Notes under the pieces: generated by a model
Database searches by the model: none
The model's input: only the letters and a program-made list of their open reading frames with translations
Told to the model about the DNA's origin: nothing
Shown: one piece after another, positions 23,550-29,028 of the stretch
Layout: every line of letters begins with the position of its first letter
Position numbering within the stretch: the first letter of the stretch is position 1
Assembly (NCBI GenBank): GCA_965243025.1
Contig: CBDETY010000003.1
Coordinates: 4,192,001-4,256,000, forward strand
Direction of reading: 5' to 3'
DNA from: Candidatus Latescibacterota bacterium
GTDB lineage: Bacteria; Latescibacterota; UBA2968; UBA8231
DNA length: 64,000 nt
Program-made: the position numbers and the translations under genes

Positions 23550-24785
23550 ATGAGCCGGCGGATCGCCGTCACCGGCCTTGGGGCGGTGACGCCTCTCGGC
23601 TCCGGCGTGGACCGTTTCTGGAACCGCCTCTGCGCCGGCCAGTCGGGCGTCGGTCCGATCACCCTTTTCGACGCCAGCGCCTTCCCGGTGCGCATCGCCG
23701 GGGAGGTAACCGGGTTCGCGCTGCCTGCCGAAATCGACCGCAAGCGGGCCCGCCGCCTCGACAGGTACGCCCTCTTCGGGGTCGCAGCGGCGTTGCAGGC
23801 ATGGCGCGACGCCGGAATCGAAGATCGCGACCCGTATCAGTCCGGAATCGTTCTCGGCTCCAGCCACGGCGGCGAGAACACCGCCCTCCAGGCGGCGGCC
23901 GCCCTCGGCCCGAACCCGTTCCCGAAAGCCGCGAGTCCCTTGCTGATCCCGCGCATGCTCAACAACATGGCGGCGGCCCAGGCGGCGATGCTGCTCGACC
24001 TTCGCGGCCCTGGCTTCTCCCTGTCCTCGGCGTGCGCCACCGGCGGCCACGCCATCGGCGAGGCATCCGAAATTATCCGCAGGGGGGATGCAGAGGTGAT
24101 GATCGCCGGGGCCGCCGAGGCCTGCATAACGCCCCTGACCCTTGCCGGCGACCACGCCCTCGGGGCGCTGTCGCGGCGCAACGCCGAGCCGCAGCGGGCC
24201 TGCCGCCCCTTCGACCGGGACCGGGACGGATTCGTGCTCGCCGAGGGCGCGGCAGTCCTCGTCCTCGAAGAGCGGGAGCATGCCAGAAAACGGGGAGGCC
24301 GCGTCTACGCCGAGCTCTCCGGGTACGGGGCAACCACGGACGGAATACACGAAACCCGCCCGGAACCGAACGGCGCCGCCGCCGCCCGGGCCATCGCCCG
24401 GGCCCTGGAGAAGTCGGGCACCGAACCGGGCGAGGTCAGCGCCGTCTTCGCCCACGCCGCCGGCACCCCGTCAGGGGACCCCGCAGAGGTTCGCGCCCTG
24501 GGCGCTTCTCTCGGGGAAACGCTCACGACCATTCCGGTGACGGCGATCAAGTCGATGACGGGCCACATGTTCGCCGCCTCGGGGGCGGCCCAGGCGGTCG
24601 CCGCGGTAAAGGCGATCGAGTCGGGATCCCTCCCCCCTACCATAAACTGCGAGCACATCGTCGGGATGGAGATCGCCTGCGTGCGGGGCGAGATGCTCCG
24701 AAGGCCGCTCACGCGGGTGCTTTCGAATTCGTTCGGCTTTGGCGGCCACAACTCCGTCCTCCTCTTTGCGGCCCCCATGCCCTGA
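23550..24785 (+). CDS. Beta-ketoacyl-ACP synthase II (FabF)-like condensing enzyme, divergent acyl pocket
   Basis: RIAVTGLG, SACATG (Cys), RDGFVLAEGA, AHAAGT (His), KSMTGH (His), SNSFGFGGHN. Start ATG 23550. Confidence 0.9.
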   Translation: MSRRIAVTGLGAVTPLGSGVDRFWNRLCAGQSGVGPITLFDASAFPVRIAGEVTGFALPAEIDRKRARRLDRYALFGVAAALQAWRDAGIEDRDPYQSGIVLGSSHGGENTALQAAAALGPNPFPKAASPLLIPRMLNNMAAAQAAMLLDLRGPGFSLSSACATGGHAIGEASEIIRRGDAEVMIAGAAEACITPLTLAGDHALGALSRRNAEPQRACRPFDRDRDGFVLAEGAAVLVLEEREHARKRGGRVYAELSGYGATTDGIHETRPEPNGAAAARAIARALEKSGTEPGEVSAVFAHAAGTPSGDPAEVRALGASLGETLTTIPVTAIKSMTGHMFAASGAAQAVAAVKAIESGSLPPTINCEHIVGMEIACVRGEMLRRPLTRVLSNSFGFGGHNSVLLFAAPMP

Positions 24786-24854
24786 CCCTTTCAGTGGCTG
24801 CGGAAACCCCGCAGGGGAAACACCTGCCGGACTTAGCCTACAGGACCCATATAG

Positions 24855-25847
24855 ATGAATGAGATTTCCACCGTTCCCTGCTTCGCGGCTATCGCCGACA
24901 AGGCGATCGCCGGTGACCCCCTCACGCGCGACGAGTGCGCCGAGGTTCTCGCCGCTCCGGACGGCGAGGTGCCTGGCCTGCTCGCCGAGACCTGGCGGGT
25001 GCGCCGCCGCTTCTGTGGCGACAAGGTGCACCTGCATGTCCTGATGAACGCCAAAAGCGGTCTCTGTCCCGAGGACTGCGGCTACTGCTCGCAATCGCGC
25101 GTTTCGGAAGCGGCGATCGAGAAGTACCCCATGGTCAGCCCGGAGCGGCTGCTCGAAGAGGCGCGCGCCGCCAGGCGCTCGCGCGCCAGGCGTTTCTGCA
25201 TCGTCACCAGCGGACGGGGGGCATCGTGGCGCGAGGTTGAATACCTCGCCGGCGCCGTACGCACCATCCGCGAGGAGGTCGACATCGGTATATGCGCCTG
25301 CGTCGGACTGCTCGACGAAGAGAAGGCAAGGGCGCTGAAGGAAGCCGGGGTCGACCAGCTGAACCACAACCTCAACACCAGCGAACGGTTCACTCCCAGC
25401 ATCGTCACCACCCACCGCTACAGCGACCGCGTCAGGACGCTGCAGGCGGCGCGGAAAGCAGGCCTCAACCTTTGCAGCGGCGCGATCTTCGGTATGGGTG
25501 AAACCGACGGGGACGTGATCGACGTCCTCATGGCGCTGCGCGGCCTCGACCCGCAGTCGATACCTGTAAACTTCCTCCATCCCATCGACGGCACCCCCCT
25601 CGAGGAGACCTGGAGGCTGACTCCCCTCCATTGCCTGCGGATCCTCTGCCTGGCGCGGCTGCTGCACCCGCACCGGGAGATCCGCGTCGCCGGCGGACGC
25701 GAGCTGCATCTGCGTTCGCTGCAACCGCTCGCGCTCTACGCGGCGAACTCGATCTTCGTCGAGGGCTATCTCACCACCCCCGGCCAGGGCACGAGGGAGG
25801 CGCTGCAGATGATCGAGGACATGGGATTCGAGGTCGAAGAGGCGTGA
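24855..25847 (+). CDS. bioB: Biotin synthase
   Basis: CPEDCGYC radical SAM motif, NHNLNTS, IPVNFL, GGRE, ANSIF. Confidence 0.96.
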   Translation: MNEISTVPCFAAIADKAIAGDPLTRDECAEVLAAPDGEVPGLLAETWRVRRRFCGDKVHLHVLMNAKSGLCPEDCGYCSQSRVSEAAIEKYPMVSPERLLEEARAARRSRARRFCIVTSGRGASWREVEYLAGAVRTIREEVDIGICACVGLLDEEKARALKEAGVDQLNHNLNTSERFTPSIVTTHRYSDRVRTLQAARKAGLNLCSGAIFGMGETDGDVIDVLMALRGLDPQSIPVNFLHPIDGTPLEETWRLTPLHCLRILCLARLLHPHREIRVAGGRELHLRSLQPLALYAANSIFVEGYLTTPGQGTREALQMIEDMGFEVEEA

Positions 25848-27196: not shown

Positions 27197-28334
27197 CTTC
27201 CTGCGCTCGGAGCGCGGCCGTCTCGAGCGGCTCGGCCTGCGCCGGTCGGTTGTGACCCCCGAGAGGCGTGACGGGGTCCGGGCCTGGCTAGAAGGCCGCG
27301 AATACGTCCTCTTCACATCGAACGACTACCTCGGGCTCGCCGCGCACCCCGAGGTGATCGCAGCCGCCGGCGAGGCCGCCCGCCGGTTCGGGACGGGTGC
27401 GGGGTCTGCCAGGCTGCTGCACGGGTCCACACCCCTGCACGAGGATCTGCAGGAACGGCTGGCGCGGCTTACAGGCAAGCAGTCCTCCCTGCTGTTCAGC
27501 TCGGGATACATGGCCAACCTCGGGCTGCTCTCCGCCCTGGCCGGAAACGGGGACGCGATCTTCTACGACGAGCGCGCCCACGCCTCGATCATCGACGGGG
27601 CGAGGTTGTCGCGCGCCACCGCTCTCCCCTACCGGCACAACGACGCCGGCGGGCTCGACGATCTGCTGCGTAAGACCCACGCCCGCCGACGCATGGTGGT
27701 CACCGAGAGCGTCTTCAGCATGGACGGGGACCTGGCGCCCCTCGAGGCCCTGGGGGAAACGGCTTCCCGCCACGATGCCCTGCTGGTCGTCGACGAGGCG
27801 CACGCCATCGGGGTCTTCGGAGAGGGCGGCGGCCTCCTGGGACGCTTGGGCCCCGACGCCCCGGCCGTCGTCACAGGCACGCTTTCGAAGGGGCTCGGCT
27901 CGGTCGGCGGTTTCGTCGCCGGGGATCCGGCCCTGATCGAGTTCCTCATCGACCGCTCCCGCACCTTCATCTTCGATACCGCCCTGCCGCCGTCGGCGGT
28001 TGCCGCCGCGGCCGCCGCCCTCGACGTCGCGCGGAACGAGCCCTGGCGCCGGAAGCGGGTCCTCGACCTCGGCGAAACCCTGCGCTCCAGCTTGAGCCGC
28101 CTCGGCTACCCTCCTTCCCGCTCCGACTCGCAGATCGTGCCGGTGCTCCTCGGCAGGCCTGCCGCCGCGGTCGCCGCGGAGGAGGATCTCAAGGCGCACG
28201 GAATCCTGGCGCGGGCTGTGCGGCCCCCGGCGGTGCCCCGCGGAACGTCGCGGATCCGCTTCGGAGTAACCGCGGCTCACGAGGAGGAGCACCTGCGGCA
28301 GGTCGCCGCGGCGATGGAGTCCTTCCGTGGGTAG
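27153..28334 (+). CDS. bioF: 8-amino-7-oxononanoate synthase
   Basis: SNDYLGL, HASIIDG, FSMDGD, DEAH, GTLSKG. Confidence 0.95.
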   Translation: MGSTASPGPPGPWADFLRSERGRLERLGLRRSVVTPERRDGVRAWLEGREYVLFTSNDYLGLAAHPEVIAAAGEAARRFGTGAGSARLLHGSTPLHEDLQERLARLTGKQSSLLFSSGYMANLGLLSALAGNGDAIFYDERAHASIIDGARLSRATALPYRHNDAGGLDDLLRKTHARRRMVVTESVFSMDGDLAPLEALGETASRHDALLVVDEAHAIGVFGEGGGLLGRLGPDAPAVVTGTLSKGLGSVGGFVAGDPALIEFLIDRSRTFIFDTALPPSAVAAAAAALDVARNEPWRRKRVLDLGETLRSSLSRLGYPPSRSDSQIVPVLLGRPAAAVAAEEDLKAHGILARAVRPPAVPRGTSRIRFGVTAAHEEEHLRQVAAAMESFRG

Positions 28335-29028
28335 GATCGTTCTCGTGACCGGGACCGACACCGGCGTCGGCAAAACGGTCGTTTCCGCATGGCTGGCGTG
28401 GAAAGCGTCGCGGGCGGGCAAGGTTGCCCTGATCAAGGCGGTCCAGACCGGAGCCGATCCCGAGGTCGGCGGGGACGAGGCGTTCTACCGCGCCGCCCTC
28501 CGCGGCATCGACGTTTCCCTGGGAACGCTGGCATCCTTCCCCGAACCGATGGCGCCGCTGATCGCCGCGCGCCGGGCTGGACGCCCGCTCGATTTCGAGG
28601 CCCTCACGCGGCAGTGCGAGTCCGTGGCCGCGGCTCACGACCTCACCCTGGTGGAGGGCTCGGGTGGGATGCTGGTACCGATAGACGAGAAACGGGATTT
28701 CGCCGACCTCGCCCTGCGCCTCGACGCCGCCCTGGCGGTCGTTGTCCGTCCCGGTCTCGGGACGCTGAATCACACCGCCCTCACCCTCGAGGCGGCAGAG
28801 CGGCGGGGGCTCGAGGTTCCCCTGCTGATCTGCAGCGGAGCCTCTCGGGAACCGGACGCGGTCGAGCGCGAGAACCTGCGTTTCTTCGCGGCGATGCGGG
28901 AGGCGCGCCAGCCGCGCACCCCGATGGCGTTGCTGGTGATCGAGCGCGCCCTCGAGGCCGACGCGGCCAGGCCTGAACGGCTCGCCGTCAGGACCGAGGG
29001 GCCGTTGCCCGGGTGGCTGTCCGGCTGA
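28327..29028 (+). CDS. bioD: Dethiobiotin synthase
   Basis: TGTDTGVGKT, VEGSGG, LGTLNHT. Confidence 0.95.
   Translation: MGRIVLVTGTDTGVGKTVVSAWLAWKASRAGKVALIKAVQTGADPEVGGDEAFYRAALRGIDVSLGTLASFPEPMAPLIAARRAGRPLDFEALTRQCESVAAAHDLTLVEGSGGMLVPIDEKRDFADLALRLDAALAVVVRPGLGTLNHTALTLEAAERRGLEVPLLICSGASREPDAVERENLRFFAAMREARQPRTPMALLVIERALEADAARPERLAVRTEGPLPGWLSG

Follow-up and report, generated by a model that had tools for sequence, protein, structure and literature searches.

A FabF paralog with a predicted polar acyl pocket encoded by the first gene of a biotin operon: a candidate for an undescribed route to the seven-carbon precursor

Introduction

Extended bio clusters of the Desulfovibrio type, as in DVU2558-DVU2565, encode a FabF-annotated β-ketoacyl-ACP synthase (KAS), DVU2563, along with an ACP (DVU2562), a FabG-like protein (DVU2561) and the products of two FabZ-like genes (PMC10102598). 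According to the account given there, Desulfovibrio vulgaris has neither bioC nor bioH, fitness data show DVU2563 to be required for growth without biotin, and the proposed route runs "without methyl esters". The same account credits this proposal to Rodionov 2004 and to Lin and Cronan 2011, presents the pathway as common to anaerobes and includes its authors' prediction of less hydrophobic active sites (PMC10102598). A further condensing enzyme, BioZ, is reported to elongate glutaryl-CoA, with E. coli FabG, FabA and FabI accepting the free-carboxyl product (PMC7645780), and in its crystal structure two serines are described as holding the carboxylate (PMC7645780, PMC8024396, PMC12625853).

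In FabF, the gate formed by Ile108 and Phe202 is "approximately located at the C7-C8 position", the E. coli I108F variant is restricted to elongation to C6-C8, and the methyl ester of glutaryl-ACP, once on the cysteine, reaches a length of about C7 (PMC9006962). Gating loop 2 and the contacts of Thr270/Ser271 to the phosphopantetheine arm have been described (PMC9006962, PMC7138838), as has the ACP-contact role of the basic residues 65, 68 and 69 (PMC7138838). Here we analyze a FabF-like protein, termed FabFx, that is the product of the first gene in a biotin operon.

Results

Organization of the locus

In the window, i.e. the whole 64-kb stretch of DNA analyzed, the order fabFx-bioB-bioA-bioF-bioD is seen on one strand (Table 1); ORFs and profile scores confirm a preliminary description that placed a FabF-like gene directly before the four bio genes. 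The bioF score is marginally below the equivalog cut-off, with TIGR00858 still being the top-scoring family for the protein. A spacing of 69 nt, with no terminator-like site found in it, separates fabFx from bioB, after which the genes overlap or abut, likewise with no such site between them: the GTG start of bioA overlaps the bioB stop as GTGA, the bioF ORF start overlaps the end of bioA, with the true start perhaps lying slightly downstream, and the start of bioD and the stop of bioF overlap by 8 nt. Directly 3' of bioD is a sodium:alanine symporter gene preceded by a promoter-like site at 29052-29081. Its membership in the operon is uncertain, but it is possibly linked to biotin function because L-alanine is the co-substrate of BioF. 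About 90 nt 5' of the fabFx start codon, an inverted-repeat scan detected an imperfect palindrome with 8-nt arms of 100% complementarity, which is a weak candidate for the operator of the operon, as roughly 0.3 such repeats are estimated to occur by chance in the 470-nt spacer.

Table 1. Coordinates of the genes, sites and residue segments discussed in the text
Feature	Position	Strand	Description
Imperfect palindrome, 40 bp	23424-23463	.	CAGCGATT-N24-AATCGCTG, inner pair CGGAAA/TTTCCG
fabFx (fabF-like gene)	23550-24785	+	411 aa; Pfam ketoacyl-synt and Ketoacyl-synt_C; polar-pocket clade, KAS II fold
GSSHGGE, residues 103-109	23856-23876	+	E. coli FabF 105-111, GSGIGGL; G107S, I108H, L111E
IPRMLNNMAA, residues 133-142	23946-23975	+	Arg135 = E. 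coli Ser136; Leu137 = Ile138
Active-site Cys162 codon	24033-24035	+	E. coli Cys163; invariant in clade and canonical FabFs
Residues 192-202	24123-24155	+	Cys192 = Ala193, Thr197 = Gly198, Asp201 = Phe202 (back gate), His202 = Gly203
DGIHETRP, residues 264-271 (gating loop 2)	24339-24362	+	E. coli DAYHMT; M269E, S271R
Phe300-Ala301-His302	24447-24455	+	Catalytic His303 equivalent preceded by N301F
His339 to Gln348	24564-24593	+	His340 through Glu349 (E to Q)
bioB (biotin synthase)	24855-25847	+	TIGR00433, 386.9 bits (cut-off 225)
bioA (SAM-dependent 8-amino-7-oxononanoate transaminase)	25844-27196	+	TIGR00508, 479.1 (cut-off 405)
bioF (8-amino-7-oxononanoate synthase)	27153-28334	+	TIGR00858, 421.6 bits (cut-off 426.45)
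bioD (dethiobiotin synthase)	28327-29028	+	TIGR00347, 125.7 (cut-off 83.3)
Sodium:alanine symporter gene	29133-30653	+	TIGR00835, 411 bits; PF01235, 431 bits

As the preliminary description had noted for the cluster, no bioC, bioH, bioW, bioI or bioZ-like gene was found, here among the scanned ORFs of the entire window. The bio cluster has no dedicated ACP, reductase or dehydratase and no other tailoring genes, and no further fab genes were seen in the 64 kb. A bioC plus an esterase, or bioW, bioI, bioZ or bioE, may be encoded outside the window, in which case FabFx need not replace them.

FabFx is a FabF-fold protein with an altered acyl pocket

FabFx scored 449.2 bits against TIGR03150, the NCBI fabF equivalog, which is under its cut-off of 493.75, and 437.2 bits against NF005589, which is over its cut-off of 387; the match to the AmcF model (cispentacin synthesis) was partial (207 bits, cut-off 325). 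An AF2 model of FabFx (pLDDT 96) superimposes on FabF structures with a TM of 0.97 and an rmsd of 1.1 Å over 411 columns, and residues can thus be safely mapped onto FabF. Substitutions were read against E. coli K-12 FabF (NC_000913), with mature numbering being that of the precursor minus 1.

All the substitutions listed in the preliminary description are present, including GSSHGGE. Thus, E. coli PSTIVN becomes PRMLNN (S136R, at a position that is Met in most FabFs and Ser in E. coli), GGFG becomes AGDH (F202D, codon 24150-24152) and GHLLG becomes GHMFA, while gating loop 2 keeps Asp265, His268, Thr270 and Pro272. The Cys-His-His triad, said earlier to be kept, is indeed present as Cys163, His303 and His340. 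As the changes fall at the published pocket or gate positions 108, 198, 202 and 138, they support the view that charged residues have reshaped the hydrophobic acyl pocket; judging from homology, residues 111, 136, 193, 269, 271, 301 and 349 probably cluster spatially. Three of the new pocket residues (Asp202, Glu111 and Glu269) are acidic.

The polar-pocket proteins form a clade distinct from canonical FabFs

The signature is present in 93 of the best 120 database matches, down to 49% identity, with the remaining 27 being canonical. In a tree of 193 sequences a single split (support 0.997, branch length 0.28) parts 86/86 polar-pocket sequences from 107/107 canonical ones, and the polar-pocket FabFs are a monophyletic clade. 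His108, Glu111 and Asp202 occur in 99-100% of the 86 clade sequences and in none of the 107 canonical FabFs. By frequency, I108H (0.99), L111E (1.00) and G107S (0.90) characterize the clade, with the same residues at 0, 0 and 0.01 in canonical FabFs, as does F202D (0.99, as against Phe202 at 1.00). Also prevalent in the clade are G198T (1.00), A193C (0.93), M/I269E (0.95), G304A (0.98) and, at position 271, R (0.84) and H (0.13). Clade and canonical FabFs further differ at positions 136 (R 0.86 and K 0.09, i.e. R/K 0.95, versus M 0.76), 138 (L 1.00 versus I 0.64), 301 (F 0.97 versus N 0.97) and 349 (Q 0.99 versus E 1.00). Kept at 1.00 across the clade are Cys163, His303, His340, Lys335, Thr307, Asp265, the GFGG of 399-402 and Asn404, with both histidines also at 1.00 in canonical FabFs; the ACP region-1 basic positions 65, 68 and 69 are K/R at 0.80, 0.94 and 0.91.

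These frequencies revise the signature as originally drawn. The fixed changes T198, C193, F301, Q349 and R271 had been overlooked; part of the PRMLNN motif is lineage noise; and GHMFA has to be discarded as lineage noise, as positions 341-343 vary within the clade. His202 of FabFx (Gly203 in E. coli) is likewise variable.

Records labelled Chloroflexota are found among the signature members (P0062, P0068) as well as among the canonical FabFs (P0114, P0121), which shows the two to be paralogs, at least at the phylum level. The clade split and the changes at published pocket positions bear out the earlier suggestion of a distinct FabF paralog with a polar acyl pocket, and the conserved residues support its catalytic machinery being intact. 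Our literature search found no biochemistry or genetics of any clade member.

Linkage of the clade to biotin genes

For 17 of the 93 clade clusters the longest contig was identical in bp to that of a BioB relative (chance expectation 0.44), a match that denotes co-location on a contig rather than gene order. The smaller shared contigs are of 3359, 4853, 5005, 6575, 7004, 11420, 14130, 15993, 20923 and 25087 bp; the larger, of 56245, 56407, 63837, 320287, 487903, 2159041 and 2651423 bp, are the 7 above 50 kb, for which the match means the same contig only. The linked pairs span 84% to 49% identity to FabFx and, given their shared ancestry, are not independent events. The corresponding count for canonical clusters was 0/27, a biased control because the BioB list was limited to relatives of the window's BioB; in the same comparison, no match was obtained with 120 AtpD hits. 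Around canonical fabF, bioB, bioA, bioF or bioD were found within ~10 kb at 0/80 loci. The linkage of the clade to biotin genes is conserved and was found in two bacterial phyla. The preliminary description had asked whether the His/Glu/Asp signature accompanies bio operons: the signature defines the whole clade, and the clade travels with bioB.

Discussion

A proposed role in pimelate synthesis, and its alternatives

The earlier interpretation, that this enzyme may elongate a free-carboxyl or otherwise polar-ended primer, is partly supported as a whole. On balance, we lean toward FabFx being a dedicated condensing enzyme that takes omega-carboxy primers to 3-oxopimeloyl-ACP without methyl-ester masking. 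It would be an ACP-dependent enzyme of biotin synthesis with a complete KAS II catalytic apparatus and an acyl pocket cut short and made polar at the Ile108-Phe202 back-gate site, which lies at ~C7-C8 as counted from the active-site cysteine. The gate itself would be occupied by His108, Asp202 and Glu111, with Arg136, Thr198, Cys193 and the loop-2 residues Glu269/Arg271 around it. We infer that a short primer with a free omega-carboxylate, most likely glutaryl-ACP and perhaps malonyl-ACP in a first round, is loaded and condensed with malonyl-ACP. Reduction of 3-oxopimeloyl-ACP to pimeloyl-ACP would fall to the housekeeping enzymes FabG, FabZ and FabI, and the other products of the operon (BioF, BioA, BioD and BioB) would take pimeloyl-ACP on to biotin. 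A pocket this short and polar would serve both to recognize the carboxylate and to end elongation at C7, making methylation by BioC and demethylation by an esterase unnecessary. Its place in the operon and the association of its clade with bioB make FabFx a strong candidate, and one open to testing, for a route to the seven-carbon precursor of biotin that has not been described before.

Linkage to bioB would be compatible with any role in pimelate synthesis, including one as an extra or specialized KAS for malonyl- or glutaryl-ACP methyl esters within a BioC-type pathway, perhaps in a host whose FabF handles methyl esters poorly. The bioC and esterase genes would then lie elsewhere: bioC and bioH are reported to be often outside bio operons, as bioH is in E. 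coli (PMC5438404), our search for bioC covered 64 kb only, and a pocket ending at ~C7 would suit the glutaryl methyl ester equally. However, a methyl ester is uncharged and, as described in PMC7645780, made for hydrophobic pockets; a pocket in which one His, one Asp and a pair each of Glu and Arg are fixed would run counter to the needs of such a substrate. Nor did the literature search yield a BioC-type organism reported to need a dedicated KAS, and we regard this reading as improbable. We consider it slightly less probable still that FabFx is a general fatty-acid KAS, be it acetyl/malonyl-initiating, a FabH substitute or a housekeeping FabF, with its adjacency to bio genes reflecting co-regulation. 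NF005589 would indeed name it β-ketoacyl-ACP synthase II, a blocked back gate would limit chain length following the I108F precedent, and the window offers no other fab gene for comparison. Against this stand its score under the fabF equivalog cut-off, the different normal context of canonical fabF, the specificity of the linkage to bioB across two phyla, and the occurrence of both types in Chloroflexota-labelled records; moreover, a charged gate would be incompatible with C16-C18 elongation, and FabFx could then hardly be the sole elongating KAS.

The acidic residues pose a different problem, as an acidic pocket is odd for a carboxylate unless bridging is provided by Arg136, Arg271 and His108, or by a metal. 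Primers ending in an amino or hydroxy group would suit the acidic residues at least equally well, and Asp202, Glu111 and Glu269 would suit a cationic terminus. Hence, FabFx might act on another polar-ended chain (amino-, hydroxy- or oxo-) or at another step, for instance if the pimelate precursor does not arise by malonyl/glutaryl elongation, or if FabFx is mainly a decarboxylase or transacylase. E349Q and N301F adjoin the catalytic histidines and could shift the balance between decarboxylation and condensation; KAS enzymes using polar primers exist, and the AmcF model matches in part. Yet the only missing input of the linked canonical biotin genes is a pimeloyl thioester, the full set of Claisen condensation residues is kept and the cluster is devoid of other tailoring genes, which leaves this reading about as unlikely as that of a general KAS.

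Comparison with known systems

The preliminary description had named BioZ as the known condensing-enzyme bypass, which is incomplete, since the Desulfovibrio FabF-annotated KAS is, going by PMC10102598, a precedent. Both that system and the one described here have a KAS II-type gene inside a bioB/A/F/D cluster that is free of bioC and bioH. However, the fabFx cluster has the KAS only; with no ACP, reductase or dehydratase of its own, it would have to rely on the housekeeping ACP and FabG/FabZ/FabI. The hosts also differ, in that the FabFx host encodes Na+-NQR, pyruvate dehydrogenase and F-ATPase, whereas the Desulfovibrio-type pathway is presented as one of anaerobes (PMC10102598), and FabFx relatives include Chloroflexota-labelled ones.

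With alpha-proteobacterial BioZ, FabFx shares its nature as a fatty-acid condensing-enzyme paralog in a bio cluster. BioZ bypasses BioC/BioH by joining a primer with a free omega-carboxylate to malonyl-ACP and leaving the host FAS II to finish, and the same would apply to FabFx. In contrast, BioZ has the FabH fold (KAS III), a Cys-His-Asn triad and a glutaryl-CoA primer from lysine catabolism, whereas FabFx has the FabF fold and Cys-His-His; for the carboxylate, BioZ uses two serines, whereas His, Arg, Asp and Glu would be on offer in FabFx. As most ACP-docking basic residues are kept, its primer is suggested to be an acyl-ACP, unlike the CoA primer of BioZ.

FabFx shares 42-45% identity, a TM of 0.97 and the same fold with E. 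coli FabF (2GFW, 2GFY) and the Thermus thermophilus enzyme (1J3N), and keeps Cys-His-His, Lys335, the GFGG/Phe400 gate and the Asp265-Asn404 loop coupling. It differs from them in belonging to a separate clade in which charged and polar residues have taken the place of the hydrophobic ones at the back gate and along the pocket, and in having bio genes as neighbors rather than acpP, fabG and fabD. As in E. coli FabF I108F and the mitochondrial KAS with Met154 (PMC9006962), where a substitution at position 108 makes the gate narrower or shuts it and so restricts the chain lengths that can be loaded, the change in FabFx would have a similar effect; but those variants stay hydrophobic, whereas FabFx has a His/Asp gate pair and, one turn from it, a fixed Glu.

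Gene content of the fabFx-bio operon

Five genes lie on the forward strand within 23550-29028 of the window, whose G+C content is ~65%: the FabF-like gene fabFx is followed by bioB, bioA, bioF and bioD. Judged by the NCBIfam equivalog cut-offs for the late biotin pathway, BioB, BioA and BioD score above theirs and BioF lies just under its own. A gap of 69 nt separates fabFx from bioB, the GTG start of bioA overlaps the stop of bioB as GTGA, and no terminator-like sites were found between any of the five genes. When the other ORFs of the window were scanned, none matched bioC, bioH, bioW, bioI, bioZ, an ACP or another fab gene; likewise, the stretch between the end of nqrA and the alanine symporter gene contains no dedicated ACP, 3-oxoacyl-ACP reductase or FabZ-like dehydratase gene.

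Upstream of fabFx is a divergent Na+-NQR operon, with nqrA ending at 23103 and leaving a spacer of 446 nt. This spacer contains an imperfect palindrome that could be an operator or a chance occurrence (~0.3 expected), and that bears no resemblance to the BirA operator consensus. An Rfam scan of the whole window detected no riboswitch or other known RNA element upstream of the operon. Two small ORFs in this region are without Pfam match. The one on the forward strand, which overlaps the start of fabFx in an ATGA arrangement, was considered as a gene and taken as non-coding, being rich in Pro, Ser, Gly and Arg and without family match. On the other side, a sodium:alanine symporter gene (TIGR00835, 411 bits; PF01235) lies directly 3' of bioD. 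As L-alanine is the co-substrate of BioF, this gene may belong functionally to the bio operon; a promoter-like site ahead of it points instead to possible transcription from a promoter of its own.

Features of the window discussed in the text
Feature	Coordinates	Strand	Description
atpH ORF	13518-13865		first 60 profile positions missing
nqrB	20457-21697	-	in two frames
nqrB, N-terminal part	21239-21697	-	profile 3-82
nqrB, remainder	20457-21446	-	profile 87-404
small ORF	23195-23743	-
small ORF	~23227-23553	+	108 aa
palindrome	23424-23463		40 bp, imperfect
fabFx	23550-24785	+	411 aa, beta-ketoacyl-ACP synthase, FabF type
bioB	24855-25847	+	386.9 bits, equivalog cut-off 225
bioA	25844-27196	+	479.1 bits, equivalog cut-off 405
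bioF	27153-28334	+	421.6 bits, cut-off 426.45; 5 bits short, yet its best family
bioD	28327-29028	+	125.7 bits, equivalog cut-off 83.3
promoter-like site	29052-29081
alanine symporter	29133-30653	+
RND efflux pump	41103-42647		stops at profile position 492 of 1021
transposase	43433-44437	-	IS1595 family
ATPase	45447-46181	-	IstB-like
Mu transposase	46311-46820	-	C-terminal fragment
large ORF	49024-58233	-	3069 aa
csb1/cas7g, csb2	58710-61344	+	Type I-G (formerly I-U) CRISPR-Cas
ORFs beside csb genes	61224-63125, 63135-63659	opposite to csb	without family match

Sequence and fold of FabFx

FabFx was aligned to the FabF of E. coli K-12 (from NC_000913), with which it shares 42% identity; positions are those of the mature E. 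coli protein, i.e. precursor minus 1. The alignment places G107S, I108H and L111E in the motif GSSHGGE (nt 23856-23876), S136R and I138L in PRMLNN, F202D and G203H in AGDH, Y267I, M269E and S271R in DGIHETRP, and L341M, L342F and G343A in GHMFA. The substitutions listed in the preliminary description are thus all present exactly where it had put them; GHMFA, which is among them, varies within the clade described below. Retained are the Cys163, His303 and His340 triad, Lys335, Thr307, Asp265, Asn404 and the GFGG loop that includes Phe400. Against TIGR03150, the FabF/KAS II equivalog, FabFx scores 449.2 bits, under the cut-off of 493.75, and against the looser subfamily model NF005589 it scores 437.2 bits, over the cut-off of 387. 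Annotation pipelines would therefore call it beta-ketoacyl-ACP synthase II.

An AlphaFold2 model of FabFx based on 101 aligned sequences (mean pLDDT 96) has the thiolase-like KAS II fold with a Cys-His-His triad, and its best structural matches are all FabF. It superposes on the P. aeruginosa, E. coli and other FabF structures with a TM score of 0.97 and an rmsd of 1.1 A over ~411 columns, which justifies residue-for-residue transfer from E. coli FabF. The passages of PMC9006962 dealing with the acyl pocket describe an Ile108-Phe202 back gate and a hydrophobic pocket for C8-C16 chains in canonical FabF, and report that I108F limits elongation to C6 to C8. Ile108, Gly198 and residues 138-140 are named as shaping the pocket in parts of PMC4606726 and bioRxiv 10.1101/2021.02.13.431092. 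Gating loop 2 is given as residues 265-275, with Thr270 and Ser271 touching the phosphopantetheine arm, in sections of PMC9006962 and PMC7138838; a section of the latter gives Lys65, Arg68 and Lys69 as ACP-docking residues. The hydrophobic back gate is absent in FabFx, which has His106 and Asp201 (its own numbering) at those two positions.

A distinct clade of FabF-like proteins

The combination of His108, Glu111 and Asp202 was found in 93 of the best 120 matches to FabFx from a collection of 5.8 billion proteins, down to 49% identity, and the other 27 of these matches, at 47-51% identity, have canonical motifs. A clade set of 86 full-length sequences was assembled from the window protein and 85 matches, after dropping seven fragments shorter than 380 aa and one match (P0044) with its C-terminal part out of frame. 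The canonical set of 107 sequences comprised the 27 canonical matches, 79 of 80 loci from a contig scan, and E. coli FabF. In a FastTree phylogeny (LG+gamma; 193 sequences, 411 columns) a single split with support 0.997 and branch length 0.28 separates all 86 clade members from all 107 canonical proteins; no grouping of FabFx with canonical FabFs was seen among these sequences. Phe202 is present in every canonical sequence (107/107) and in none of the clade (0/86). The replaced positions include Leu111 and Ala193, which presumably line the FabF pocket, and Glu349, which we take to support the catalytic histidines. Position 271 is Arg in 0.84 and His in 0.13 of the clade. At the ACP-docking positions Lys65, Arg68 and Lys69 the clade still has mostly Arg or Lys, and in docking region 2 Lys128 and Arg206 are mostly lost.

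Signature positions of the clade (residues found in 85% or more of the clade and in 10% or less of the canonical FabFs; values are fractions of sequences)
E. coli position	Clade residue	Clade	Canonical
59	Pro	0.90
85	Trp	0.99
107	Ser	0.90
108	His	0.99
111	Glu	1.00
136	Arg	0.86, plus Lys 0.09
138	Leu	1.00
193	Cys	0.93
198	Thr	1.00
202	Asp	0.99	Phe 1.00
269	Glu	0.95
289	Lys	0.95
301	Phe	0.97	Asn 0.97
304	Ala	0.98
333	Ala	0.99
349	Gln	0.99	Glu 1.00

All 80 loci from the contig scan with FabFx patterns kept the canonical residues at 39-47% identity, none being a clade member, and the ESM Atlas gave only generic KAS II clusters. The best 150 hits of a phmmer search of a representative library were mostly multi-KS polyketide synthases, whose summed scores exceed those of single-domain proteins. 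A tblastn search of plasmids (1396 records matched, best identity 45.3%) recovered no clade member. Full-length FabF-family proteins ~42% identical to FabFx were seen on haloarchaeal megaplasmids (hits H27 and H28, in Haloarcula and Haloterrigena); type II fatty-acid synthesis is, to our knowledge, not a known trait of archaea, and these proteins are thus unexpected.

Linkage to biotin genes

Co-location was assessed by comparing the longest contig of each FabFx cluster with those of the BioB matches, identity of size in bp being taken to indicate the same contig, which says nothing on gene order. By this measure, a relative of the window's BioB lies on the same contig in 17 of the 93 clade clusters, as against 0.44 chance coincidences expected from a density estimate; the BioB list is biased toward relatives of the window's BioB, and the 17 pairs share ancestry and are not independent events. 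Five of the shared contigs are no longer than 7,004 bp (3359, 4853, 5005, 6575 and 7004), five are of 11-25 kb, and the remaining seven are larger, up to 2.65 Mb. The FabFx members of these pairs are between 84% and 49% identical to the window protein. No exact contig size is common to BioB and any of the 27 canonical FabF clusters, and in a control with AtpD none of 120 clusters matched the FabF-search or BioB list. Also, bioB, bioA, bioF and bioD were found within ~10 kb of none of the 80 canonical fabF loci. The named BioB relatives are from Chloroflexota (Ktedonobacteria, e.g. Thermogemmatispora and Tengunoibacter), and two FabFx proteins of the clade that carry a name come from Chloroflexaceae and Chloroflexi MAGs. 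For the ATP synthase beta subunit encoded in the window, Gemmatimonadetes MAGs provide the closest relatives with a name, at 88% identity.

Proposed function

To judge from its conserved residues, FabFx keeps the full machinery for condensing ACP-borne substrates in a two-step Claisen reaction, and is predicted to have lost the hydrophobic tunnel beyond ~C7 and to have gained a His/Asp/Glu/Arg cluster there. A role as housekeeping FabF was rejected, as the charged gate residues are incompatible with C16-C18 elongation. Given the kept Claisen machinery, the rebuilt pocket and the conserved linkage to the genes of late biotin synthesis, FabFx is best read as a condensing enzyme that would be dedicated to making the pimelate moiety, extending to 3-oxopimeloyl-ACP a primer whose omega-carboxylate is free. 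Glutaryl-ACP would be the likeliest primer, and its carboxylate would reach the rebuilt gate; PMC9006962 notes that on the cysteine, glutaryl-ACP methyl ester has the length of a C7 acid. A first round might start from malonyl-ACP. The rest of the cycle would fall to housekeeping FabG, FabZ and FabI, and PMC7645780 shows for the BioZ route that reductive enzymes accept a free-carboxyl C7 intermediate. The short polar pocket would block re-loading of pimeloyl-ACP and thereby fix the chain length. For FabFx we infer the substrate, where its glutarate would come from, the part that a metal may play and the independence of BioC. That a carboxylate site should contain three acidic side chains calls for an explanation, the options being an arginine or metal bridge, or another polar terminus.

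A bolder proposal, which we put forward tentatively and regard as somewhat short of an even chance, is that a single rebuilt FabF paralogue suffices to make a methyl-ester-free pathway to pimeloyl-ACP, distinct from the known routes, out of ordinary type II fatty-acid synthesis. Malonyl-ACP and then glutaryl-ACP would be loaded with free carboxylates into the His/Asp/Glu/Arg pocket, possibly with the help of a metal; the pocket would measure the chain and stop at C7, with housekeeping ACP, FabG, FabZ and FabI doing the remainder. If true, this would be an instance of the old 'three malonates' proposal and add a further, uncharacterised route to the biotin precursor across Gemmatimonadota and Chloroflexota, distinct from BioC/BioH, BioI/BioW, BioZ, BioE and the multi-gene Desulfovibrio module.

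The origin of pimelate in bacteria without bioC/bioH, bioW/bioI, bioZ or bioE is a standing gap in biotin biosynthesis. The clade offers a one-gene candidate, and its signature of His108, Glu111 and Asp202 can be searched in any genome. As current pipelines would label such proteins "beta-ketoacyl-ACP synthase II", the genomes encoding them are probably scored as being without early biotin synthesis. For enzymology FabFx would be a case of a KAS II pocket naturally re-gated to take a charged substrate of limited length, and for biotechnology it would provide a pimeloyl-ACP route without need for SAM.

Other features of the window

The nqrB gene is split over two frames, which points to a frameshift near 21415-21450, through either an assembly error or a pseudogene, and the atpH ORF is truncated relative to its profile. 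The RND efflux pump gene also ends early and is followed by an IS1595-family transposase, an IstB-like ATPase and a Mu-transposase fragment; G+C falls to ~0.60-0.62 across 41103-46820. The pump gene appears to have been disrupted by insertion sequences here. Apart from a type IX secretion sorting domain (TIGR04183) at its C-terminus, the 3069-aa ORF contains little that is recognisable, and probably encodes a giant secreted or surface protein. Around the csb genes G+C rises up to 0.75. No tRNA genes, and no Rfam families at gathering score, were found in the whole 64 kb.

Relation to known systems

The preliminary description had suggested that FabFx may be a KAS II-type analogue of BioZ bypassing BioC, on the premise that the FabH-type BioZ is the sole condensing-enzyme bypass. 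This premise is incomplete, as the FabF-annotated KAS DVU2563 of Desulfovibrio, described in part of PMC10102598, precedes it. According to that part of PMC10102598, the bio cluster of Desulfovibrio vulgaris contains, besides DVU2563, an ACP of its own, a FabG-like reductase and FabZ-like proteins, each of which is required for growth without biotin, in a genome without bioC and bioH; its authors propose elongation "without methyl esters" by active sites predicted to be less hydrophobic. The interpretation is partly supported: clade-wide conservation and the bioB linkage (17/93) strengthen it, and its standing as the first KAS II-type route is weakened by the Desulfovibrio precedent. The window likewise has a FabF-like KAS in a bioB/A/F/D cluster without bioC or bioH; the ACP, reductase and dehydratases of the Desulfovibrio cluster are, in contrast, absent from it. 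PMC10102598 cites Rodionov 2004 and Lin and Cronan 2011 as earlier sources on the Desulfovibrio-type cluster. In the main text of openly accessible papers we found no description of the clade, its signature or a fabF-bioB arrangement outside Desulfovibrio-type clusters.

BioZ is also encoded in a biotin cluster, as is FabFx, with bioB linkage in 17 clade members; it differs in having a FabH fold and a Cys-His-Asn triad, as stated in part of PMC7645780, whereas FabFx has a FabF fold and a Cys-His-His triad. With DVU2563 compared by its description, the system of the window resembles the Desulfovibrio idea reduced to the KAS alone and occurring in other phyla. As a candidate for a missing early step of biotin synthesis, the FabFx clade is concrete, widely distributed and open to experiment.
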